This document shows positions 1 through 36,090 of a DNA stretch of 64,000 bases, piece after piece (position 1 is the first letter of the stretch; every line of letters begins with the position of its first letter). Location of the stretch: assembly GCA_965218795.1 (NCBI GenBank), contig OZ244653.1, forward strand, positions 2,432,001 to 2,496,000, given 5' to 3'. A program made the position numbers and the translations under genes. This DNA is from a bacterium (GTDB lineage Bacteria > UBA8248 > JACPRG01 > G963555815). Below the pieces are notes generated by a model. The model worked only from the letters and a program-made list of their open reading frames with translations. It was not told the DNA's origin and made no database searches.

Positions 1-1715
1 CCCTTGTCGTTGAGGTTGGTGCTCACGTTGCGAACGTTCGATTGTCCAACGGTCGGCGCGCGAAAGCCCGTGCTGACCGAACCGCGAAACGCAAAACTGT
101 CCGTCGCTTGCCAACGGGCGGCCACTTTGCCGTTCAGGGTGTCTCCGAAGACTTCGTAGTCCTCATACCGGCCCGCTACGCCGACTAGAACGTCCTCGAC
201 CACGTCGGCTTCCAGGTCGATGTACCCGGCGTAGCTGCCGCGGTTGAACGCGCCCGCCGTATCGGGCCGAAAGCCGGGAAACCCATTGGAGCCGATGCCG
301 AAGCCCTGCCTTGCGAGATCCTCGTCAATCAAGTAGGAGTTGGGTTCTCCGGCTTCGATCTTGAACTCTTCCTCGCGATACTCCAGGCCGAGGGCGAGGT
401 TCAGGGGAGAGGAAAAAATGTTTGTGTCGAACGGCCTGGACAGATCGACGTTGAGCACGCGATCCGTCTCGGTGTAGGCGCCGGTGTTGTAGTCCGTCGG
501 AATATCCGAGCCCAGTCTGGCGAGCTGGGGATTGATGGTGTTCGACATGAAAAAGTCCACGCCGTGTTGACCCAGAACGGCGCTCGCATCGTAGCGCCAG
601 CCGTCGAGCCATACGTTGTCGCTGGACAGTTCCCCCCGCAGACCGAAGGCCATGCTCCAGTCGCGCACGACGCCCCCGAACGTCGGCGTAAACCCGCCGG
701 GAAAGCGATCCCTGAACGAAAAGATCTCGCCCCCTTCCAAGGGGATCTGCAGAAGATTGCCGTCACCATCGATGAACACGCCTATCCGTTTCTCGGGATG
801 TCGGAAGAAAAACCCTCCTTCCACCTCGCGTTCCGCATAGTTGCCGAATGCGTAGGCTTCGATGCCGTTGACCAGTTCGAGGCCGAAGTTGGTGAAGAAT
901 TTATAGTCGTAGTGGAACTCCGGCGCGCCCCAAACCTGCGCCGCGGGTGTGCGCACGTGGGTATTGCCCGCGTCAATCAGATCCTGCGCGTCGCCGCGCT
1001 GGACGCTGCGGCTGGTCGGGTCGGCCTGTTTGTACTCGAAGCTGAAGTTGGCGAAGCCCGATTGGGTCAGGGGCAGGCCGAGGTTGCCCGCAATATGGAA
1101 CGTGTCGCCGTCTCCCTTGTAGTACTGGCCCCAGCGGGTTTCCACCGTGCCGCCGTCGGGAGCGTCTCTCAACACGAAATTCATCACGCCGGCGATGGCG
1201 TCGGAACCGTACTGAGCGGACGCGCCGTCGCGCAGCACTTCCACGCGTTTGATCGCAATGGCTGGTATCACGGCAAGATCAGGGGCATGCGACCCGTCCG
1301 AAACGCCGGTCGCCACGAAGGTGATCACGGACGAACGATGGCGCCGTTTGCCGTTGACCAGAACCAGGGCGGCGTCCGGGGACAGCCCGCGCAGGTTCGC
1401 CGGGCGCACCAGCGTCGCGGCGTCGCTGATGGGCTGCTGGTTGACGTTGTAGGATGGAACGGTGGCGGACAGGAGAGAGTCCATGTCCGTGACGCCGTAA
1501 TGCTTGAACGCGTCACCGACGATCACGTCCACCGGCACCGGAGAATCATGGGCCGAGCGTCCCGGATGACGGGACCCCACCACCACCACCTCTTCGAGCA
1601 CCACCTCTTCGGGTTTCGCGGCCCCCCGGTTTTCCTGTGCGGCGGCCGGTGAAACCAGCAGCATCAGCGGGCTCAGCAACAGGATGCGCTTCCATACCCC
1701 TTCCCATCTACTCAT
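1..1715 (-). CDS. TonB-dependent receptor (3' end runs off window)
   Basis: Not in ORF track. Manual translation from ATG at 1715 (AGGAG upstream): MSRWEGVWKRILLLSPLMLLVSPAAAQ...LEEVVVVGSRHPGRSAHDSPVPVDVI...LRGLSPDAALVLVNGKRRH...IAIKRVEVLRDGASAQYGSDAIAGVMNFVL (signal peptide, TonB box, plug domain). Confidence 0.93.
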   Translation of the reverse strand, partial: MSRWEGVWKRILLLSPLMLLVSPAAAQENRGAAKPEEVVLEEVVVVGSRHPGRSAHDSPVPVDVIVGDAFKHYGVTDMDSLLSATVPSYNVNQQPISDAATLVRPANLRGLSPDAALVLVNGKRRHRSSVITFVATGVSDGSHAPDLAVIPAIAIKRVEVLRDGASAQYGSDAIAGVMNFVLRDAPDGGTVETRWGQYYKGDGDTFHIAGNLGLPLTQSGFANFSFEYKQADPTSRSVQRGDAQDLIDAGNTHVRTPAAQVWGAPEFHYDYKFFTNFGLELVNGIEAYAFGNYAEREVEGGFFFRHPEKRIGVFIDGDGNLLQIPLEGGEIFSFRDRFPGGFTPTFGGVVRDWSMAFGLRGELSSDNVWLDGWRYDASAVLGQHGVDFFMSNTINPQLARLGSDIPTDYNTGAYTETDRVLNVDLSRPFDTNIFSSPLNLALGLEYREEEFKIEAGEPNSYLIDEDLARQGFGIGSNGFPGFRPDTAGAFNRGSYAGYIDLEADVVEDVLVGVAGRYEDYEVFGDTLNGKVAARWQATDSFAFRGSVSTGFRAPTVGQSNVRNVSTNLNDK

Positions 1716-1957
1716 GACTTGGCATCTCCTAAATACGTGTCGCGGTTAATTCAAGATTGCAGTCGAATTCTCTATGAAAAACTCCTTTTTATTTTACACG
1801 GAATGAGCGTGCTGGATCATTTTTTCATGGCTGCAACGCAAGAGCCATCCGATTGTCAAAGGGCATAGGTATGTTTGAGGTCGTATCCGGCGGGGGCCTC
1901 ATGCGGTGCGCTTTCTCCCTCCTCACGGATTGGAAGCCCGGAAGGTGAGACCGGACA

Positions 1958-2263
1958 GTGATAAACCTCAAAGATCTGAGTCTGACGTATCCCAATGGTG
2001 TGACCGCCCTTCAACCCATTGACCTCGAATTCAGACGGGGTGAGTTTTGTGTCCTGTTGGGAGCGTCGGGTGCTGGAAAGTCCTCTCTTTTGCGGTGCCT
2101 GAACCACCTGAATACCCCGACAACCGGGACTCTCCGGGTCGATGGGACCGGCGAATTGAGCTCAAAAGCCCGACTGTTGGAACACCGTCGCCGAACCGGA
2201 ATCATTTTTCAGCAACACCAGCTCATCAAGCGCCAGACGGCCCTGCAAAATGTGCTGGTCGGC
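1958..2263 (+). pseudogene. Phosphite/phosphonate ABC transporter ATPase (PtxA/PhnC-like), N-terminal ~100 aa only
   Basis: YPNGVTAL, Walker A GASGAGKS, IFQQHQLIKRQTALQNVLVG; no ABC signature or Walker B follows. Confidence 0.85.
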
Positions 2264-2503
2264 CATAGCCTGGGGCGGGACGGCGGCGCTCGCAGCTGCG
2301 CGGGACATCCCCGAATGCGCGGCGCTCTCCGTCATCGGCTCGCCCTTTGATCCAGCCCATCTTCGCCACATCGAGGACGCCCGGCTTATTGTTGAGACGG
2401 CCCGTCATCCGAAGAGCTTTGTTTCCCTCGATGACGCCGACGGAAGGCCGACGCCGATGAGGCGGCCAGTGCTCTGGCGGTCTGGGCCTCGCGGTACATC
2501 GAG
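2255..2503 (+). pseudogene. Alpha/beta hydrolase remnant (OsmC-associated type)
   Basis: Pieces in shifting frames: LVGHSLG, IGSPFDPAHL, ARHPKSFVSLDDAD, ALAVWASRY. Confidence 0.7.
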
Positions 2504-2590
2504 GGGGATTCTCAGGCTGTTTTCAGGCGGGCCTGGAAGCGCGGACGGAAAATCCCCGCAGTTTGCCGGCTAGGTCGAAGGAACGAGCGG

Positions 2591-4069
2591 CTACCCGTTT
2601 TCGTTGGGGTGCAGACGGTACTCGTGATGCTCGCGCCCCTCGCCGGAGCCGCGGCCGAAGTAGTGCCACCTCGGGAAGTTGAAATCGGACGTCAGCGAGG
2701 TGGGCAGCAGAAGCGCCGCCTGGAGATACGCTTCCAGGTCGGGAACATCGTAGAGATTGACTTCGTATCCCCATCGGTCGAGGCAGTCGAAAATGCGCCG
2801 CTTCCTTTCCGTTCTCCAACTGACGGAGAATCGATTGATCCCCCACGAGACCATCATCCGGAGGATCTCCTGCGCCTTTTCGGGCACGGCGAGAATCATC
2901 GGCGCGAGGAAATCGACAGGGCACTGAACGATGGCGTCCGGGAAGGTTCCGCAGATCCTGCGGAAGCCTTCCTCCCGAAGCGATTGAATGGTCCCGTTGA
3001 ACCACAACCGCGACCCGTCCAGATGAGCCTGTTCGATGACGCCCAACACGCGCCGCACCAGCTCGTCTCCTTCCTTCAGGTCCAGCTTGATTCCCCGTCC
3101 GTGCTGACTGATGGTCTCGAGGCACTCGTCCAGCTCCAGCCATTCCTCATCGACGGACCAGGGAGTCTGCGCAAAGGAGTCGTGGCGAAGGACGACGCGA
3201 TCCATGGGATCCCGCCGGACGTCGCACTCCCCCCAATGAACGGCCGAGGCGAGAAACTGCCTCAGGTTGGCGTGGTCGTTGATCCCGTGCCAGGCGAACT
3301 GAATGTGATTGGGCAGATCGCGCTCGGAAACGAGACTCGTGATGTCGTAGGAGTCGCCGCGAACGGTTCGGGGCGTAGCGCTTCGTTTGGATTCGAAAAG
3401 GGTATTGGCGTGGAGAAAGAGGATTTCCCCTTCCGGTTCCCCCTGGACCATGGCCTCGATGTTCCGGGGCTCGTTGTCCACGGCGGCGAACAGCCGGTAA
3501 CCGGCCTCTTGAAAGTATCGGAGACCCTCGCGCTTCGCCTCTGCAACCCCATCTTCCCACCCGCGAGGGTTCATGTATAACAGGTCAGATCGAAAATTGA
3601 CGCGGTACTCCTCGCCCAGTGCGTTCAGAGACCGAAGCGTGTCCTCTCTGAGACCCTCCGGACGGCCGGTATTCAGGCCGACGCTCGTCGCCGGCTGAAT
3701 CTGAAACCAGCGAATGACGTCCATGACGCCGCGATACGGCTGGTGCGACGCCAGGATGGCGTCCGAGTTCCAACGATTCTCCTGGTACCAGTCGAGAATG
3801 TCCCGTCTCTCCGATCCCGGCAGGAGGAGGGTGTCGAGGAATTGATCAACGTGGTTCTCATGAACCTTGATGTCATCGATCCGCAGCCCCTTGAAGAAGC
3901 TTGACCGGTGAGTGCGGTCGAAGGAAAGCAGCACGTACTGAACCATGTGCCGCATGTCGAGGATGGTGCCGTCGATATCAAAAAGGATCAGCAGCCGATC
4001 GTCCGGGTACCGGCAACGGGTCCGATCGTACTGATCCGCCAATGCCCGCATCCAGTCCTTCATGTGCAT
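2591..4069 (-). CDS. HAD-superfamily hydrolase fused to a FAM151/DUF2181-like (PLC/GDPD-like) domain
   Basis: HAD motifs FDIDGT, NTGR, K, VDNE. C-terminal half: WHGIND, GECDVR, LRHD, GIKLDLK, WFN. Confidence 0.75.
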   Translation of the reverse strand: MHMKDWMRALADQYDRTRCRYPDDRLLILFDIDGTILDMRHMVQYVLLSFDRTHRSSFFKGLRIDDIKVHENHVDQFLDTLLLPGSERRDILDWYQENRWNSDAILASHQPYRGVMDVIRWFQIQPATSVGLNTGRPEGLREDTLRSLNALGEEYRVNFRSDLLYMNPRGWEDGVAEAKREGLRYFQEAGYRLFAAVDNEPRNIEAMVQGEPEGEILFLHANTLFESKRSATPRTVRGDSYDITSLVSERDLPNHIQFAWHGINDHANLRQFLASAVHWGECDVRRDPMDRVVLRHDSFAQTPWSVDEEWLELDECLETISQHGRGIKLDLKEGDELVRRVLGVIEQAHLDGSRLWFNGTIQSLREEGFRRICGTFPDAIVQCPVDFLAPMILAVPEKAQEILRMMVSWGINRFSVSWRTERKRRIFDCLDRWGYEVNLYDVPDLEAYLQAALLLPTSLTSDFNFPRWHYFGRGSGEGREHHEYRLHPNENG

Positions 4070-4174
4070 GCCTGAACACCTCCCCGATGTCCTCCTGGAG
4101 TCGATTGAGCCTGTTTTGCTTCCTTGCTTTCAATCCGCTGCGGTTCCATATCTTTATGAAAGATACGAAGGTTA

Positions 4175-4213
4175 TGTTTCTGGTCGATGACGCGGATGTT
4201 ACGGTTGTGTGAA
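4175..4213 (-). promoter_or_regulatory. Pho-box-like array of four direct repeats with 11-bp period
   Basis: Minus-strand hexamers TTCACA, GTAACA, GTCATC, GAAACA at 4208-4213, 4197-4202, 4186-4191, 4175-4180, ~105 bp upstream of the HAD gene. Confidence 0.5.
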
Positions 4214-4315
4214 AGGGTCCCGCTGGAGGCGTTAAGATAAAGGGGGACCCACGAATGAGGAAATGACGGTGACTCTACTTCAACCGGGCACGCTCCGGCA
4301 GGGAGGCGGCATTCG

Positions 4316-4819
4316 ATGAGCGATCATGAAGAGTTTATGGCCATTGCGATGGAAGAGGCGCTTTCGGGATTGAAAGAGGGCGAGCAGCCCTTCGGCGCCT
4401 GTGTCGTGTTGGATGGGGAGATCATCGTACGGGCTCACAGCATCAAGGTGAACACCCATGACATCACGGCTCACGCGGAGACGCGCGCGGTCGGGCTGGC
4501 CACCCGGGCGCTGAAGAAGAACAGTCTCGCCGGGTGCGCCTTTTACTCGGTGTGCGAGCCTTGCCCGATGTGCTGCGGGGCGATCCTGAACAGCCAGGTC
4601 TCCACGCTGGTCCTGGGCGCCCGCCTGGCGAATCTGAGGGAGCAACCCAACGAGAACATGAACCTCGAACAGTACAAGGGCGGGACCTTCAACTTCCATG
4701 CATACAATGCGGAGCGGATGGCTGAAATGGTCGGTTCGGATATTGTCGTTGTTTCCGGGGTGATGGAAGAAGAATGCGAAAAGCTCTACCGCGACGCCGG
4801 AATCAAGCTCAGCCGGTGA
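4316..4819 (+). CDS. Nucleoside/nucleobase deaminase (TadA/guanine deaminase-like)
   Basis: PFGA, HAE, CEPCPMC zinc motifs; GGAGG RBS. Confidence 0.93.
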   Translation: MSDHEEFMAIAMEEALSGLKEGEQPFGACVVLDGEIIVRAHSIKVNTHDITAHAETRAVGLATRALKKNSLAGCAFYSVCEPCPMCCGAILNSQVSTLVLGARLANLREQPNENMNLEQYKGGTFNFHAYNAERMAEMVGSDIVVVSGVMEEECEKLYRDAGIKLSR

Positions 4820-4870
4820 TCCACGCTCAAGGAAAGGTGTGAAGCGGCTCCGCTTGCTGATCCGTCGGGC

Positions 4871-5599
4871 CAAAATGCGGATCACCTCAAACGTGACGGC
4901 AAAGTCGCATCCAAACCGCTTCCCGGCATCGATTGCGGTATTCCGGAGAAACTCGAAGATATCGAACCCGCCCCCCAGGTTATCGAGGTAAACGCGGTGG
5001 GCCTTCAATGAGGCCACGCCCGTCTCAAAACAGTGTGTGACGTCCACCGCGTGGGCGGCTTCCGGGGAGCTGTTGACGCACACCATTCTGACCCCGCCCC
5101 AGGGCTCGAACCCCTCCGTCATCAACTCGGGAAAGATCCACCGGTTTCCCGCGTCCCTCGCCGCGTCGAGGATCGCCAACCCCGTCCAGCGGTGGTCGGC
5201 CATGTTGAGGGCCCCGCCTCCCCAGGTCAGGTGATGGGATATCGTGACAATGACCTCCGGCCGGTGTTTTCGGATCGCGCGGGTGAGATCTTTGCGCAGC
5301 GGGAGGCCGTATTCGATCACCCCGTCCGGATAGCCGAGGAACTCGACTGATTTCACCCCGACGATGGCGGCGCTTTCGATCTCCTCCTGCTTGCGAAGGG
5401 TCCCCGTCTCCTCGGGCGTCATGGAGTCGATACCCGCCTCCCCCCGGGTCAACAGGACGTAATCCACCGTTTTGCCCTGCAACGTCCATCGGGCCACGGC
5501 GCTGGAGGCCGCATATTCCATGTCATCGGGATGGGCGACGATGGCCAGGGCGCGGTCCCAATCCTCCGGCAAGGGTTGAAGCTCATACTGGTCATTCAA
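4871..5599 (-). CDS. PIG-L family deacetylase (ORF formally reads on to 4280)
   Basis: AHPDDME, TRGEAG, ADHR motifs; family similarity ends near FEVIRI (~4875). Confidence 0.88.
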
Positions 5600-7200: not shown

Positions 7201-7413
7201 TCCGCAGGGCGTTTTCCCCGCCCCCTGGAAAACCAGCGGACGCACGAAGCCCTCGCCGATATTCCATCGGCGAATCAGGCGGTCGATACAGAATGGGTCG
7301 TTCCTGAGTCGGTATCCGATTCGCGCTTATCGATTGCCGTCCCACTTTCATGACAATACTTTGCGGCCCTGAGAAAAGCAGCCACCCAAAGAGCAGAAAC
7401 AAGAACCACCGGG

Positions 7414-7665
7414 GCGGAGGTGGCCATCTCCTTTGGATTGATGCTCGTCGTGCTGGTGGTTTCCAACCAGCGCCGCCTTTCAAGACTGACCGGATTGTTC
7501 ACTGATATTCTGGTTGCCATTGACATCTTGACCGTTGCGCCCATTCCCTGAATGAGCGTGAACCCCGCGCGCTCGCTGGGGTCGGCCTTGGCGTCTCAGC
7601 ATTGGAGCGGGTAGTAGATCCATTTCACCGCCCCCCAGGTGGGAATGCTGCTGGCGGCGCAAGCC
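7414..7665 (+). pseudogene. Aquaporin/MIP family C-terminal remnant
   Basis: AEVAISFGLMLVVLVVSN...API P*MSVNPARSLGSA...WSG**IHFTAPQVGMLLAA; NPARS at 7561; stops at 7549, 7612, 7615. Confidence 0.8.
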
Positions 7666-24758: not shown

Positions 24759-26141
24759 ATGAAAACCCCTGAGTTGGCGGTCCGAGGCGGCCGTGTGTTT
24801 CTGGACTCAGGACCGATCGAAGCGGACGTCTACATCCGGGGAGAGCGAATCGCCGCGATCACCTCGCCGGGACGAGGAGCCCAGGTGCGGGAGACGATCG
24901 AAGCGCGCGGCCTCTGCGTTTTCCCGGGCCTGGTGGACCTCCACGTCCATTTCCGGGAGCCGGGCCTCACCCACAAGGAGGATTTCGGCAGCGGATCGCG
25001 AGCCGCCTTGGCGGGCGGGGTCACGACGGTTTTCGATATGCCCAACGTTCAACCCGCGACCACCACCCCGCCGGTCTTCCGGGAAAAGCTCCTCACGGCC
25101 ATTTCCAAAGCGCACTGCGATTTCGGTCTATGGGCCGGCGGGACGGACGGGGGCGTCTATCCTGCGTTCGCCGATCTCGGCGCGGTCGGAGTAAAAATTT
25201 ACCAGCAGCAGTTGGCCAAGATCAGGGGGAACGCTTACTTCCGGGAGTTATTCTGTACCGAAGAAGACGCGCTGCTGGAGGTCTTCCAATCGGCCGCACG
25301 GGCCCGCCTGCCCATATGCCTCCATGCGGGTACCCCCTCTATGGAGACGATTGAACGAGAGCGGCTCCGGCGGGCGGGCCGCCGCCGGATGAAAGACCTG
25401 GACGGTCTTCGGCGGGTTCCCGCGGCGAGTCTGGGGACGGCGAAATGCATCCATTTGGCGGAGGCGACGGGCGCGCGGCTTCACATCGCCCACATCTCCT
25501 TGTCGGGCCCCGAAACCCTTGACCTCGTTCGGCGGGCGAAGCGAAGGGGCGCTCACGTGACCGCCGAGTGCCCCCCGGTGGGCCTCACGCTGGAGGGCTT
25601 GGAGCGTATCGGTCCGTACGGCTTGCCCTTCGCCCTGCCGAGAAAAGAGGTTGCCTTATACTGGCAAGCCATGGCGGACGGGACCATTGATGCCGTGGGC
25701 ACGGACCACGCCCCGCACGCGAGAGAGGAGAAGCTCCGCGGAAAAGACGACGTATGGGAAGCCCCGACGGGTTACCCGGGGCTGGAGGTTTCCCTGGCCA
25801 TCGGGTTGCAGCAGGTCGAAAAGCGAACCCTCAGCCTGGAACGCCTGGTCGAATTGATGAGCGCAACTCCCGCGAAGATTGCCGGATTGTATCCACGCAA
25901 GGGGTCCATCCGGGTCGGGTCCGATGCCGACCTGACGCTCGTGGACCCGGATGCGGTCTGGACCGTGGAGGCCCGGAAGATGGAGTCCCGGGCGGGTTGG
26001 TCGCCGTTCGAGGGAAGAAGGTTGAAGGGCCGGGCCGTGGGTGTCGTCCTGCGGGGCCGGGAGGCCATGCGCGACGGCGAGATTCTCCTCCGGCCGGGCG
26101 ACGGCCGGTATCTTGGTTTGTCTGCGAAGGAAATGGCATAG
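24759..26141 (+). CDS. Dihydroorotase/allantoinase-family cyclic amidohydrolase
   Basis: DLHVHFREPG, DMPN, HIAH, GTDHAPH, GSDADL. Confidence 0.92.
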   Translation: MKTPELAVRGGRVFLDSGPIEADVYIRGERIAAITSPGRGAQVRETIEARGLCVFPGLVDLHVHFREPGLTHKEDFGSGSRAALAGGVTTVFDMPNVQPATTTPPVFREKLLTAISKAHCDFGLWAGGTDGGVYPAFADLGAVGVKIYQQQLAKIRGNAYFRELFCTEEDALLEVFQSAARARLPICLHAGTPSMETIERERLRRAGRRRMKDLDGLRRVPAASLGTAKCIHLAEATGARLHIAHISLSGPETLDLVRRAKRRGAHVTAECPPVGLTLEGLERIGPYGLPFALPRKEVALYWQAMADGTIDAVGTDHAPHAREEKLRGKDDVWEAPTGYPGLEVSLAIGLQQVEKRTLSLERLVELMSATPAKIAGLYPRKGSIRVGSDADLTLVDPDAVWTVEARKMESRAGWSPFEGRRLKGRAVGVVLRGREAMRDGEILLRPGDGRYLGLSAKEMA

Positions 26142-26989: not shown

Positions 26990-27059
26990 CCGCCGGGGTC
27001 GGACGGGTCTCACCGTACTCCCCGGCCCAAGCGGGTCACCATATGAAATCTCACGCCGT

Positions 27060-27102
27060 CCCTCTCCCTTTGGGAGAGGGACGGCCGAAGGGCGGGTGAG
27101 GG
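27060..27102 (+). repeat. REP-like palindrome
   Basis: CCCTCTCCC-TTT-GGGAGAGGG...GGGTGAGGG. Confidence 0.7.
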
Positions 27103-27390
27103 TGTTCGCCCCCCCGACACGGGATATGAGCCCTCCTGTTGACCCTCCCGCTCCCGTTCGTCGTCATTCCCGCCGAGTTGCCCGGTTGGCCCATGGTCTC
27201 TTTCGGACTGGCGGGAATCTGTTCACCGGCCCTCGCGGCCCTTTTCATCATACTCGGCTCATGGTAGGTGGTCTGTCGGCGTAGCCAGAACACGGCGTTG
27301 GAACATCCTGCCTTCTCCAGCCGAATGCCTGTCTCCGGTGGCATGGCCGCATGGACGTTCGGTACGCACGGCTGCCTCACATGCCGGAAT

Positions 27391-27783
27391 TTACAGCAGC
27401 GACACACCCTCAAGCCGCGCCGCCTTCTGATCGAAGGTATAAAGGGGATGAGCCCCGGATCGTTTCGCCGCCGCCAGGATCATCAGGTCAGAAAATCCGG
27501 AGCCACCCGCCCGGTATCGGAACGCTGCGCGGGCTACATCGTCGGCCGCTTCGACCACGAGACCATCGGTCGTCACCAGCTCTTCCAGTATCGTCGCAAT
27601 CCGGGCGCGGGAATAGCCATAGGCCCTCTCCAACACCCAGGAGAGCTCAACCGTTACCTCCCGGCACACGTAGCCGGGCCGACCGGCGGTGAGCGATTCC
27701 AGGAGCCTCCGGGCGGCTTCCGCCTGTTCGGCGTCATCACGTACCAGGTAGCGGACGAGGACGTTGGTATCGACTGCGATCAT
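27391..27783 (-). CDS. vapC: PIN-domain type II toxin
   Basis: MIAVDTNVLVRYL, VELSWVL, FSD, TFD; start overlaps antitoxin stop. Confidence 0.93.
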   Translation of the reverse strand: MIAVDTNVLVRYLVRDDAEQAEAARRLLESLTAGRPGYVCREVTVELSWVLERAYGYSRARIATILEELVTTDGLVVEAADDVARAAFRYRAGGSGFSDLMILAAAKRSGAHPLYTFDQKAARLEGVSLL

Positions 27784-28013
27784 CCCTCGCACGCCCCATC
27801 GGCGATGGCCCGCTCCATTTCCTCCACCGTGACGGCGGGGCCGTCATGCCGGAGGGCGCCGAACAGCCGGCTGATGGGGCGCACGGGCAGAATGCGCACT
27901 TCGCCATCGGCGATAACGTAGCGCACCCGGTCCCCAGCCTGCAGGCCAAGCGACTCCCGCACGGGCTTGGGCAGGGTCGTTTGCCCCTTCTTTGTGACAG
28001 AAGATTCGATCAT
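27780..28013 (-). CDS. AbrB/MazE-family antitoxin
   Basis: SSVTKKGQTTLPKPVRESLGLQAGDRV; AGGAGG RBS. Confidence 0.93.
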   Translation of the reverse strand: MIESSVTKKGQTTLPKPVRESLGLQAGDRVRYVIADGEVRILPVRPISRLFGALRHDGPAVTVEEMERAIADGACEG

Positions 28014-28200
28014 GACAACTCCTCCTTTGGCCTTTCAATATACTGATCGGCCTTACTTTCGTCAATGAATAATGGATTTCTTGCAATCTCCGCACCTTCG
28101 CGGCTCATCATCTGCCGGTCTCCCTTTCTTCCCGCCCCACCCGACACCTTTCCCTGCGCGCCGGTAAGTAACCGCTGAGGACCACCTGGGGCGGGTGGTC

Positions 28201-28284
28201 GAAGCGGAGCACGACCGAGACGAGAACGCGGCGAAAAACATCGCCCGCGCCGCGGCGAAGAAAACGGCGGCGGAAATCCGCTAG
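28201..28284 (+). pseudogene. TnpB/Cas12-like nuclease C-terminal stub
   Basis: EAEHDRDENAAKNIARAAAKKTAAEIR*; RuvC-III-type DRDxNAAxNI motif. Confidence 0.7.
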
Positions 28285-28365
28285 AAAAAGAGGGGAGAAA
28301 ATGGGGAAAAGTGGCGTGACGCCGTTTTCCGCGATGGCGAAACAGGCGCAATGAAAGGGGAAACA

Positions 28366-28425
28366 GTTTTATGACCCTGCTGGATGGGTGGTAATCCAGA
28401 CGACACGGAACCTGTTTTTGATTTA
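28366..28425 (+). CRISPR. Putative single 36-nt type V repeat plus 24-nt partial spacer, truncated by IS1595
   Basis: GTTTTATGACCCTGCTGGATGGGTGGTAATCCAGAC (28366-28401): CTGGAT/ATCCAG stem, ACCC/GGGT pseudoknot potential, AC end; only one copy seen. Confidence 0.5.
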
Positions 28426-29158
28426 GGGTCATGCCTAGCTGAGAGTCGAGCTTTACTCCAGAATGCTATGTATGACAATGAAAAACAAGTATGCGAGGCG
28501 TTCAAGGATTTCCGAGGCCAAAGTCCGTGAAGCCGTTCGGTATTTCGCCGCAGATCTCACCGCTGTCCAGGCGGCCGAGTTGAGCGGATTGAACCGGAAC
28601 ACGGTGAACCGTCTATACCGCGCTCTGCGGGAACGCATCCTGCTAGCTTGTGAGGCGCAACGCCCTGTGTTCGGTGTGGTCGAGGTAGACGAAAGTCTCT
28701 TCGGCACTCGCCGCGTGAAGGGCAGGCGCGGGCGTGGAGCCTATGGCAAAACGACCGTCTTTGGTATCTTCGAACGTGAGGGACAGGTCTATACGGAGAT
28801 CGTCTCGGATTGCTCAAAGCCCACACTGCAAGGGATCATCCGCGGCAAGGTGGACCTGAACACCGTCGTCAACACGGACAACTGGCGTGGCTACAACGGC
28901 TTGGTCGAGCTCGGATACGGCCACTTCCGGGTCGACCATTGCTTTGATGAGTTCACTTGCGGTGCCGTCCACATCAACGGCATCGAAGGCTTCTGGGGAC
29001 TGGCCAAGGTTCGGCTGGCAAAATTCAAGGGCCTGCCCAAACACACCTTCCACCTCCATCTCAAAGAAACCGAGTGGCGCTACAATTATCGCCATTCCAA
29101 CAAATACAAAACCCTGTTAACCTACCTGCGAGAAAATCCCATCAGCTAGGCATGACCC
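28426..29158 (+). mobile_element. IS1595-family element, apparently intact (transposase 28463..29149)
   Basis: Perfect 17-bp IRs GGGTCATGCCTAGCTGA / TCAGCTAGGCATGACCC; EVDES, TDNWRGY, HINGIEGFW; no target duplication. Confidence 0.95.
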
Positions 29159-29176
29159 ATCGAAAAAAAAGAAGCC

Positions 29177-29361
29177 CGACCCGGCAACTCCGCCGGACCG
29201 GGCCTGTTCTCTCTATACTTGAGCTACTCGATATTGAAATCGGGCAAGGCGTAGGGGTAGGCATTGCGAACCCGGTCGCATTTTTCCTGGCCGAGTTTTC
29301 GGATGGCCTCCTGCATTTCATCCGAGGTCGCGTGGCGCTCGAGGATCAGGCGGCCGTTCCG
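29177..29361. repeat. 185-bp direct repeat of 35393..35577 (3' end of ferritin-like gene and terminator)
   Basis: Appears identical by eye from CGACCCGGCAACTCC to GGCGGCCGTTCCG. Confidence 0.92.
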
Positions 29362-29707
29362 TCGGGATGGACCTTGACGAGGGTGCTGTCCAGCGACACC
29401 GCCTCGAGCTTGATGCGCACGATCCGTTCCCGCTGCAGCTGCTCGAAGACCCGGTCGATCACCCCGTTCTTGGACCAGCGGTTCATCCGGGTGTAGATGG
29501 TGTGCCAGTTGCCGAACCGGGTCGGCAGCCCCCGCCACTTGCAGCCATGCTCGGCGACGTACAGGATGGCGTTGAGCACTTGCAGGTTCGACAGGCTGAC
29601 GTTGCCGCGTTGCACCGGCAGGGAGGGTGCAATGCGTTCGTACTGAGCTTGGGTGATCTCCATCCGCAAAGGATAACATGATCTCAACCATTAGTGCTAA
29701 CAGGCCC
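29356..29707 (-). mobile_element. IS5-family element, left end and truncated transposase
   Basis: CTAG-GGCCTGTTAGCACTAAT end; LNAILYVAEHGCKWRGLP..FGNWHTIYTRMNRW, SLDSTLVKVHPDG. Confidence 0.9.
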
Positions 29708-29934: not shown

Positions 29935-30119
29935 TCTTGACGTTCGAATTGGTCAACGCAGAGACCTAATTGCTTTACGCCTCGGACTGGCCCCACCAGG
30001 ACTTCGACCTGCCGAGCACGATCTTCGATCTCCCCTTCCTCTCGGAACGGGCGAAGCGGAACATCCTGGGCGAGAACGCCCTGAAGCTGTTTAATCTGGA
30101 AAGGCCGGAGGGAAAATAA
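29935..30119 (+). pseudogene. C-terminal remnant of a paralogue of the 31717 amidohydrolase
   Basis: *LLYASDWPHQDFDLPSTIFDLPFLSERAKRNILGENALKLFNLERPEGK*. Confidence 0.88.
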
Positions 30120-31716: not shown

Positions 31717-32925
31717 ATGGATGCCAACGTGGACCAAGCCTGGGAAATGCCGGTCCAGATTATGGACACGGTAACCGACACACGAGAGATCCTGGCGCAC
31801 GCCAAGAAACAGGCCGAGGAACGGAACCTACAGGACTATGTCATCTTTGACGTAGACTCCCACATCGTTGAATCCCTCCGTTGGGACGATGTCGCCCAAT
31901 ACATCGATGACCCCGTCATCCGTGAACAGGCATTGACCTCGGAACGGGGGGCCCCCTATGGCCTGAACAGCACTCCAGGGCTTCTATACCAGGACGTGGG
32001 GGGGCGCATTCCGCACGAACTGGGGCTGGGCGAACCCGTCGAGGAGACCGACGCTCATCGTTATGTGGCCCTGATGCGGCGCGCCATGGAGTGCATCGGA
32101 ATCGATTACATGGTCGTGTTTCCCACGTCAATGCTCCAACTGGGAATGTCGCCCCAGCTTCCCATGCAGAACCTGCTCGCCAATGCCTTCAACCGCTTTT
32201 TGGTGGATCACATGCTCAAGGTCGACCATCGAATCAAATCGTTGCTCTATCTGCCTTTTCACGATCCGGAGGCGTCGCTTCTCACCGTGGAGGAGTTTGG
32301 TGAAGACCCTGGCGTGATTGGCTTCATGGTGACAAGCGTCCGAAACAAGCCCGTCCAGGACAATCAGTACATGAAGCTTTACGCCGCCCTGGAGGAACGG
32401 GGCCTCCCCTTGGCGTTTCACGGCGGTTATTACTGGCACGAACCGGTGATGGAACAATTCCACCGGTTTCTGGGTGTCCACTCTGTGGGGTTCATCCTAT
32501 GGAACCTGATTCACCTGGTCAACTGGGTGCTCCACGGAATCCCGGAGCGGTTTCCGAATCTCAAGACCATCTGGATTGAGAGCGGTCTTGCGTGGGTTCC
32601 CTTCATCATGCAGCGCCTCGATAATGAGTATCTGCTCCGATCCTCCGAGGCACCGGCCCTGAAGCGACTGCCGAGCGAATACATTCGGGAGATGTACTTC
32701 TCATCCCAGCCCCTGGAGCGGCAGAATTTAAAGGCACTGGAGCTAAACTTCGAGATGGTTGACGCCGAGAACCATCTGCTCTACGCCTCCGACTGGCCGC
32801 ACCAGGACTTCGACCTGCCGAGCACGATCTTCGACCTCCCATTCTTATCCGACCAAGCGAAACGAAACATCCTGGGCGAGACCGCTTTGAAGCTGTTCAA
32901 TCTGGATCGGCCCAAGGGGAAGTGA
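31717..32925 (+). CDS. Amidohydrolase_2-family protein, candidate amidohydrolase-related dinuclear oxygenase
   Basis: DVDSH, FHGG, IESG, SQPLE, YASDWPHQDFD; Rieske gene directly downstream. Confidence 0.85.
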   Translation: MDANVDQAWEMPVQIMDTVTDTREILAHAKKQAEERNLQDYVIFDVDSHIVESLRWDDVAQYIDDPVIREQALTSERGAPYGLNSTPGLLYQDVGGRIPHELGLGEPVEETDAHRYVALMRRAMECIGIDYMVVFPTSMLQLGMSPQLPMQNLLANAFNRFLVDHMLKVDHRIKSLLYLPFHDPEASLLTVEEFGEDPGVIGFMVTSVRNKPVQDNQYMKLYAALEERGLPLAFHGGYYWHEPVMEQFHRFLGVHSVGFILWNLIHLVNWVLHGIPERFPNLKTIWIESGLAWVPFIMQRLDNEYLLRSSEAPALKRLPSEYIREMYFSSQPLERQNLKALELNFEMVDAENHLLYASDWPHQDFDLPSTIFDLPFLSDQAKRNILGETALKLFNLDRPKGK

Positions 32926-35380: not shown

Positions 35381-35422
35381 AAAAAAGAAGATCGACCCGG
35401 CAACTCCGCCGGACCGGGCCTG
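35381..35422 (-). terminator. Rho-independent terminator after the ferritin-like gene
   Basis: CCGGC-GGAGTT-GCCGG hairpin followed by TCTTCTTTTTT. Confidence 0.6.
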
Positions 35423-35439
35423 TTCTCTCTATACTTGAG

Positions 35440-36090
35440 CTACTCGATATTGAAATCGGGCAAGGCGTAGGGGTAGGCATTGCGAACCCGGTCGCATTTT
35501 TCCTGGCCGAGTTTTCGGATGGCCTCCTGCATTTCATCCGAGGTCGCGTGGCGCTCGAGGATCAGGCGGCCGTTCCGGACGTGTGTCCCTTCGTGGACCA
35601 GCATTTCGTCTCTGACCACAATGGCCGAGCGCTCGTCCAGCACCTCGACCATCTTCCGGAAGGTGTGAATCAGAATCGTTTCCCCGAAGATCTGAAGCGA
35701 GGCGGCGATCTGCCAATACTCAGGAAGGAACGTGATGTTGTACATCGCGAGATCTTCGGGCGAGGGCTGATAAGCCTGGAGGTCGCCGTTCCCCCCCAGT
35801 TCTTCCGCCCGCTCCGCGCAAACCTTCCAATGAAGGAGCTCTTCGGCCAGCTGGCGCGCCAGGAGAACTTTGATGTCCGCATCCTCGTCGGGCAGTTGAT
35901 CGATCTCCCGCGCAACGGTGGGGACGCCCAGATAGAACTCCCGCCAGGCCTGGGTTTCCATGAGGCGGCGGTTTTGGTCATGGTCCATCTGAGAAGTCCA
36001 TTCCGACAGAATGTGCTCGTCCATGTAGGCCCCGAATCCCTCGGCCTGTTGGATCATGCTTTTTGCAAAAGCATAGCTGTTCATCGCCAT
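35440..36090 (-). CDS. Ferritin-like di-iron domain protein
   Basis: Ligand spacing WRE...EELLH...GE...EGTH. Confidence 0.8.
   Translation of the reverse strand: MAMNSYAFAKSMIQQAEGFGAYMDEHILSEWTSQMDHDQNRRLMETQAWREFYLGVPTVAREIDQLPDEDADIKVLLARQLAEELLHWKVCAERAEELGGNGDLQAYQPSPEDLAMYNITFLPEYWQIAASLQIFGETILIHTFRKMVEVLDERSAIVVRDEMLVHEGTHVRNGRLILERHATSDEMQEAIRKLGQEKCDRVRNAYPYALPDFNIE

Follow-up and report, generated by a model that had tools for sequence, protein, structure and literature searches.

In two publications on other members of the Cas12m family (PMC11013384, PMC10442227), DNA binding guided by a crRNA leads to interference. In published accounts of Cas12m, the repeat forms a handle of a stem and a pseudoknot that is bound by the protein, and invaders are silenced by DNA binding and not by cutting. 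For Cas12m2 of Mycolicibacterium mucogenicum (PDB 8hhl, 8hhm and 8hio), the source gives a repeat-derived scaffold of 36 nt with a stem, in which positions -36 to -30 are disordered, a pseudoknot helix that pairs -22 to -17 with -8 to -3, a non-canonical G(-23):A(-2) pair, a flipped-out A(-24), a crRNA loop at about -12 to -9, and protein contacts to C(-1) and G(-12) (PMC10442227).

The solved structure nearest to the intact homologue discussed below is UnCas12m4a (PDB 23vu); a literature search on Cas12m4 found no publication on this entry. Cas12m shares a C-terminal zinc ribbon and RuvC-III motif with the TnpB proteins of IS200/IS605 elements, and in both systems the guide RNA (the omegaRNA of TnpB) lies directly downstream of the gene. 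The two differ in that TnpB elements carry no array and are usually present in several copies, whereas the 36-nt repeat type studied here forms a spaced array in a relative, and the stretch that holds it is unique in its genome. In degenerate and orphan CRISPR loci eroded by insertion sequences, the effector is lost, the array has shrunk, and the borders carry IS and toxin-antitoxin DNA.

Here we describe a locus within the window, a stretch of 64,000 nt of a bacterial genome to which coordinates refer unless stated otherwise. We consider positions 28199-28425, with a probability of about 0.9, to be what is left of a type V-M (Cas12m) CRISPR-Cas module that no longer functions. An earlier note had proposed a Cas12m-like CRISPR remnant from the letters of this stretch, and this is borne out by the match of the coding tail, the gap and the repeat to a locus of the relative G026 that holds an intact Cas12m gene and an array.

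The cas12m stub, leader and repeat, and their intact counterpart

The features of the locus and of its surroundings are collected in Table 1. The succession given in the earlier note, from the end of the stub at 28284 through a gap of 81 nt, a repeat of 36 nt and a further 24 nt to the IS1595 inverted repeat, proved exact in all its coordinates. The frame of the stub, which ends in TAG, encodes ...EAEHDRDENAAKNIARAAAKKTAAEIR* from 28201, and it lacks a start codon and is preceded, 38 codons upstream, by a stop in the same frame; the cas12m stub is therefore a gene fragment. Its RuvC-III motif reads HDRDENAAKNI, with the catalytic Asp codon, assigned by motif position, at 28219-28221. Around the leader, the plus strand showed no sigma-70-like promoter site.

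Table 1. Coordinates of the relic, of its two borders and of the corresponding slot in related genomes (window positions unless a genome or locus is named).
Feature	Position	Strand	Remarks
Duplicated vapBC module, 938 bp	27261-28198	-	second genome copy, sharp ends
PIN toxin	27391-27792	-	PF01850 (Pfam)
MazE/AbrB-type antitoxin	27780-28013	-	PF04014 MazE (Pfam)
cas12m 3' remnant	28199-28284	+	27 codons from 28201, RuvC-III motif, stop 28282-28284
Leader-like intergenic stretch, 81 nt	28285-28365	+	alignment with the 84-nt leader of G026
Solitary 36-nt type V-M repeat	28366-28401	+	32/36 identity to the G026 repeat
Spacer stump or array trailer, 24 nt	28402-28425	+	last 8 nt are half of the IS target duplication
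IS1595-family IS, 733 bp, 17-bp terminal inverted repeats	28426-29158	+	1 of 6 genome copies
IS1595 transposase ORF	28463-29149	+	PF12762 DDE_Tnp_IS1595, E 5e-24
Variable slot	26990-28425 and genome 3012184-3012360 (G000)		vapBC module and cas12m relic
Variable slot	L084 2945-3663 (G001)		~150-aa unrelated gene of lower G+C
Variable slot	L085 2126-7358 (G004)		5.2 kb of other genes

The 36-mer, GTTTTATGACCCTGCTGGATGGGTGGTAATCCAGAC, is single-copy both in the window, with 3 mismatches allowed (0 of 100 shuffles matched), and in the 5.17-Mb genome, with as many as 9 allowed. The stretch 28199-28424 has no second copy in its own genome, nor has the 24-nt tail at up to 5 mismatches, and a search for the exact 36-mer in genome_contigs and metagenome_contigs gave no further record. 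The 27-residue tail of the stub, which is too short to score alone, went unseen by tblastn at E<=10.

A DNA search with window 28199-28425 was performed in 61 genomes, namely its own and 60 relatives. G026, which belongs to the same class and to another family, matched positions 6-203 of the 227-nt query (window 28204-28401) with 70% nucleotide identity and an E value of 9.1e-18, and the homology to the 3' end of its cas12m gene begins in the window at about 28204. The coding tail, the leader and the repeat are aligned together, and the stub is thus homologous to a Cas12m gene and not merely TnpB-like. The 12 other genomes with matches gave short, weak ones only (20-50 nt, E 9e-5 to 0.01), and the sequence-level homology of the stretch is accordingly with one relative, G026.

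In G026, the same search returned 12 further matches to the repeat part, about 66 nt apart, and a repeat finder identified 13 copies of a 36-nt repeat spaced by 66-68 nt. Of these, the one most distant from the cas12m gene is degenerate, so that the leader must lie on the gene's side. An intact ORF of 639 aa lies 84 nt upstream of the first repeat; its product ends in ...CPECGAAHDRDENAAKNIARAAREKRGGERRKKKGG*, with CPECGAAHDRDENAAKNIARAA in the end region. The leader cores of the window and of G026 correspond as GTGACGCCGTTTTCCG / GTGACGTTGTTTTCTG, and the stop codons of the stub and of the G026 gene are not homologous. Within the G026 array (L011 7133-7463), we also observed that one repeat-spacer unit is duplicated exactly (7332-7397 equals 7398-7463) and that two adjacent spacers are similar to each other.

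The identity of the G026 protein as a Cas12m is given by structural databank matches: it aligns with UnCas12m4a (23vu) at E 8.8e-126 over residues 39-634 of 639, with an entry named Cas12m (23vw) at E 2.9e-30, and more distantly with Cas12m2 (8hhl) at E 6.8e-9, in its C-terminal part only. PF07282 was the only Pfam domain recognized. Inspection of motifs placed its RuvC residues at D360, E526 and D614, a D-E-D type that differs from the H-D-D triad of Cas12m2; the tail in the window keeps the third Asp of this UnCas12m4a-type RuvC. Neither cas1 nor cas2 was found beside the G026 locus, whose neighbours are housekeeping genes, in agreement with the introduction of a publication that describes the subtype as lacking adjoining adaptation genes (PMC11013384).

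Compared with the UnCas12m4a type, the window holds 27 codons and one repeat only. The effector of about 600 aa, with its RuvC domain and zinc ribbon (TNB), is absent, and so is the repeat-spacer array that would stand beside it. Searches of the own genome returned no PF07282 match (control genomes were positive), no match of the G026 protein at E<=1e-10 and, by local tblastn, nothing below E 0.1 for this protein. The suggestion that the effector had been deleted is thus upheld, with no piece of cas12m left in the genome beyond the 27 codons. As neither a further cas12m fragment nor a second repeat is present in the genome, the locus is dead; with the effector missing, guided interference cannot apply at this site, and the remnant presumably does nothing now.

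As a separate observation, the own genome carries another CRISPR system, with a cas1 match at 209.8-210.5 kb (within the region 209829-213684; L081, L082) and an array at 212272-213684 with 29-nt repeats of the GTGTTCCCCGCCCACGCGGGGATGAACCG type and spacers of about 32 nt.

Structure of the repeat, and two other readings of the stretch

The repeat of the window can be laid out as segments of 8-4-2-6-4-4-6-2 nt, in which a stem pairs 28374-28377 with 28386-28389 and a pseudoknot helix pairs 28380-28385 with 28394-28399; all 10 of these pairs form. It differs from the G026 repeat at four of 36 positions, and two of these are a compensatory pair in the 6-bp helix (U-A to G-C). For covariation we used five sequences, namely the window repeat plus, from each of G026 and G011 (a second genome with a Cas12m locus, described below), the main and the terminal repeat; together they represent three independent repeat types only. 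The structure pairs 90% of the 50 cells, versus 38-50% after shifting the partner by 1-3 columns, and unpaired cells are confined to the two degenerate terminal repeats. Changes on both sides were seen in 6 of the 10 pairs, and the covariation score was reached by none of 500 shuffles.

A plain RNA fold of the window repeat gave a z-score of -1.78, with a method that cannot show a pseudoknot. When the layout was searched with G at position 14 and a terminal AC, a single match was found in the two strands of the window together, and 11 matches were found genome-wide, about the number due to chance. The layout alone is thus not significant at the scale of the genome, and significance comes from the homology to the G026 array.

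The comparison with Cas12m2 was made by pairing positions. The window repeat fits the Cas12m2 scaffold, with the helix at the same positions and G, A, C and G at -23, -2, -1 and -12 (PMC10442227). The stem and pseudoknot that the earlier note had read in the repeat are thus supported by compensatory changes among repeats, and they also fit the Cas12m2 pairing positions.

Could the lone repeat have been kept as a working RNA, a decoy or regulator that binds the Cas12m of incoming mobile elements? Solitary repeat units serve as RNA anti-CRISPRs, and the locus would then be a chromosomal counterpart of these. The 10 pairs and the four protein-contacted bases are all intact despite the loss of the effector, and the stretch is held with 0 to 4 differences in contigs from four studies, as would suit a maintained RNA; this intactness may, however, only reflect a recent loss. 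The repeat sits behind a cas12m tail and a leader, a position that indicates descent from a resident locus and not from a mobile-element decoy, and its strand shows no promoter-like site. We therefore regard a functional RNA as very unlikely and retain the reading of a dead type V-M remnant.

Even less probable is an origin of the stretch as the right end of an IS200/IS605 or IS607 element in decay, made of a TnpB tail followed by the 3' part of an omega/reRNA. The C-terminal motif is common to Cas12m and TnpB, and a true TnpB tail (L078) carries a very similar peptide, so that the tail alone cannot separate the two families. The G026 protein itself matches TnpB structures at E ~5e-11 (residues 552-626) and scores just beneath the cut-off of the NCBIfam model guided_TnpB (99.6 bits versus 100). 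These TnpB matches, like those to Cas12f structures, cover only about the last 75 residues of the protein, however, and the homology to G026 spans tail, leader and repeat jointly. The 36-mer family, far from being such an end, forms the spaced array of 13 copies in G026. The earlier note had offered to be refuted by a 36-mer never seen in spaced arrays, or by one mapping to an IS200/IS605 right end, and this check came out for CRISPR. The own genome gave no PF07282 match and contains every part of the stretch only once, and no Rfam family reached threshold over the stretch (best E 0.74). On the strength of the G026 array and of the single-copy state here, we rule out the TnpB end and keep to the Cas12m remnant.

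Borders of the relic and a proposed course of decay

On its left side, cas12m is truncated at the right edge of the vapBC module, and since the cas12m homology starts at this edge, the body of the gene was lost there. The second copy of the module lies at genome 184158-185096 (L002), with 94.6% identity over 940 columns, and its right edge adjoins, as judged by eye, the C-terminal fragment of a different transposase-like gene. The vapBC edge in the window may have arisen either by insertion with deletion or by joining through recombination. The coding part of the module has DNA matches of 69-74% in 15 of 23 genomes of genus g7, which also holds the Cas12m loci, and none in the 6 genomes of its own family, a distribution that hints at a horizontal origin of the module. 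Two further observations concern this side of the locus: an 8-nt inverted match, AGGTGGTC / GACCACCT, lies near both ends of the module, and a dispersed repeat of about 55 nt at window 27050-27108 recurs at three other genome sites with 81-91% identity.

The right border is formed by an IS with the features of the IS1595 family, namely a DDE transposase, inverted repeats in all 6 copies and duplications of about 8 bp. The other copies lie at genome 103657, 3011451, 3924067, 4951220 and 4967568. Copies c1 and c6 keep their own duplications of 7-8 bp. The copy in the window (c2) has no target duplication of its own, with TTGATTTA (28418-28425) on its left and ATCGAAAA on its right; TTGATTTA recurs on the right flank of copy c3, at genome 3012184, 551 kb away. 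The flanks of the four remaining copies link up in a closed cycle, in which the left flank of each copy finds its like in the right flank of another: that of c2 in c3 (identical, 8/8), that of c3 in c5 (similar, 7/8), that of c5 in c4 (similar, 7 nt) and that of c4 in c2 (similar, 7/8). By a rough estimate, this cycle is far beyond chance. It reflects either one block interchange among three direct copies and one inversion, as an IS-mediated rearrangement with blocks of ~0.55 Mb and 1.9 Mb and an inversion of 15.6 kb, or mis-resolution of the repeats by the assembler, with a mis-ordered assembly as its outcome.

Beyond the IS, a stretch of 136 nt at window 29165-29300 recurs at 35381-35516 (98.5%), beside an ORF (29346-29687) that encodes the DUF4096 of IS4/IS5 transposases. 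From about 29349, the summed contig depth is 1,700-4,900 in all four of the public runs introduced below, and the DUF4096 element is very abundant in those samples. At window 29970-30119, an ORF of 49 codons repeats, with few changes, the C-terminus of a full-length Amidohydro_2 gene (31717-32925) located 1.7 kb away; this part of the window is rich in IS, and the ORF is a gene fragment.

Contigs of four public runs from four studies (X1, X4, X6 and X9) were placed on window 27000-29600. Record 1 of X1 covers 27000-28453 with 3 differences, records 11 and 12 of X4 cover 27904-28233 and 28204-28425, and record 22 of X6 covers 28149-28450; over stub, leader and repeat, the contigs of these three runs show 0 to 3 differences. 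Record 27 of X9 contributes a 574-nt piece (27852-28425) with 4 differences, among them 28393 A>G in the loop of the repeat. All four runs bridge the junction between vapBC and the stub by at least 31 letters, and a junction reproduced in four studies is not a one-off assembly artefact. The contigs of X1 and X6 enter the IS by 28 and 25 letters only, and the IS junction is not formally bridged because these lengths fall below the 31-letter rule. The whole contig of X9 record 27 measures 1635 nt; it departs from the window exactly at 28425 and continues for 1061 letters unlike the IS, and it may represent an IS-free form of the site. A further run, X20, labelled RNA, contained 0.05 of the words.

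Least likely of all is a chimera of unrelated reads with artefactual junctions. In its favour, this metagenome-derived genome has a contamination score of 6.36%, and the exchanged flanks of four IS1595 copies are of a kind that assembler mis-resolution could yield. Against it, independent contigs of four studies reproduce the left junction and the whole relic, for which a chimera is thereby excluded; only the way in which the large blocks between IS copies are ordered may be in error.

Synteny provides an independent test of the exchanged flanks. In G001, a genome of the same genus, the orthologue of the amidohydrolase gene at window 24759-26141 (79% identity; C22:6783-8150) and that of the permease-like gene to the right of c3 (82% identity; C22:9617-10954) lie convergently on the same contig, 1.5 kb apart, and in G004 the two orthologues are 6 kb apart. 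The gene order of G001 and G004 indicates that the relic was originally bordered on its right by the DNA now located from genome 3012184 onward. Relatives differ in what they carry between the convergent isochorismatase-family and permease-like genes (Table 1), and the slots of G001 and G004 show no trace of cas12m or of the repeat.

On the c3 flank, TTGATTTA is followed by TTCTTGGTTTCCGGGCATCG..., which at the expected offset is identical to the window repeat at 13 of 36 positions (counted by eye) and is not a repeat; the c3 right flank also showed no homology to the G026 locus (best E 0.045). As this ancestral flank has no second repeat, the array was already down to a single repeat by the time the IS inserted. 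The earlier note's view of an array cut short by the IS is thus probably wrong. It had also taken the 24 nt after the repeat for a cut spacer; they may be the first part of a spacer that had lost the rest to a previous deletion, or array trailer. A search for a protospacer of the repeat-adjacent sequence (window 28396-28425), which had been proposed as a check, returned matches at the level of chance only, with best E values of 0.6 in phages (21 nt) and 5 in plasmids.

The following course of decay would accommodate these observations, in an order of events that we infer. The intact form, as represented by G026, has one gene for about 640 aa, a leader of about 84 nt, 36-nt repeats, spacers of 30-32 nt and no adaptation genes. 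The cas12m gene would have been reduced to its last 27 codons, with the break at the very edge of the vapBC module, and the array would have collapsed to one repeat. An IS1595 element would later have inserted 24 nt past the remaining repeat, and recombination from IS to IS, or a mis-join in the assembly, would then have shifted the original right flank by 551 kb.

Cas12m loci in related genomes and significance of the relic

A second type of Cas12m was found in G011, where the gene is intact (648 aa), and in G028. The G011 protein is 40% identical to that of G026 over the whole alignment, and the C-terminal half of the second type (350 residues) is 42-43% identical to it. Its arrays hold 4 copies of the repeat in G011 and 3 in G028; this repeat, GATATAGGCCCCTGTGCGGTGGGGATTGACCGCAAC, has very different letters and the same 8-4-2-6-4-4-6-2 layout. 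We note that the frame of the G028 gene (L020 2624-4162) is broken by a TGA, with an ORF of 512 aa, and it may be another copy in decay.

In all, a Cas12m-like gene was present in 3 of 50 other genomes of the class and in none of the 6 genomes of the own family; a search of the phylum returned the same 51 genomes as that of the class. An alignment of Cas12m proteins used as query found 58 loci in genome_contigs, of which two (G026 and G011) are full-length Cas12m and the others match in a TnpB-like C-terminus only, and 1 weak locus in metagenome_contigs. Scanning 15 of the 58 loci for the repeat layout revealed arrays only at G026 and G011, and a lone, chance-like match at L066. Use of the repeat as a probe for intact relatives, as the earlier note had advised, thus led to three Cas12m loci in a small and little-studied phylum.

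The locus is unexceptional: a defence system, here a decayed type V-M locus, worn away by mobile DNA. It is the same in kind as other orphan CRISPR loci eroded by IS elements; only the subtype and the host lineage are particular. It carries little mechanistic weight, and it offers a clean, well-bounded example of the decay of a single-gene CRISPR module. The analysis of the IS flanks flags either real, large rearrangements or a mis-ordered assembly. A single repeat of the Cas12m type is recognisable, and it can be used to find intact loci.
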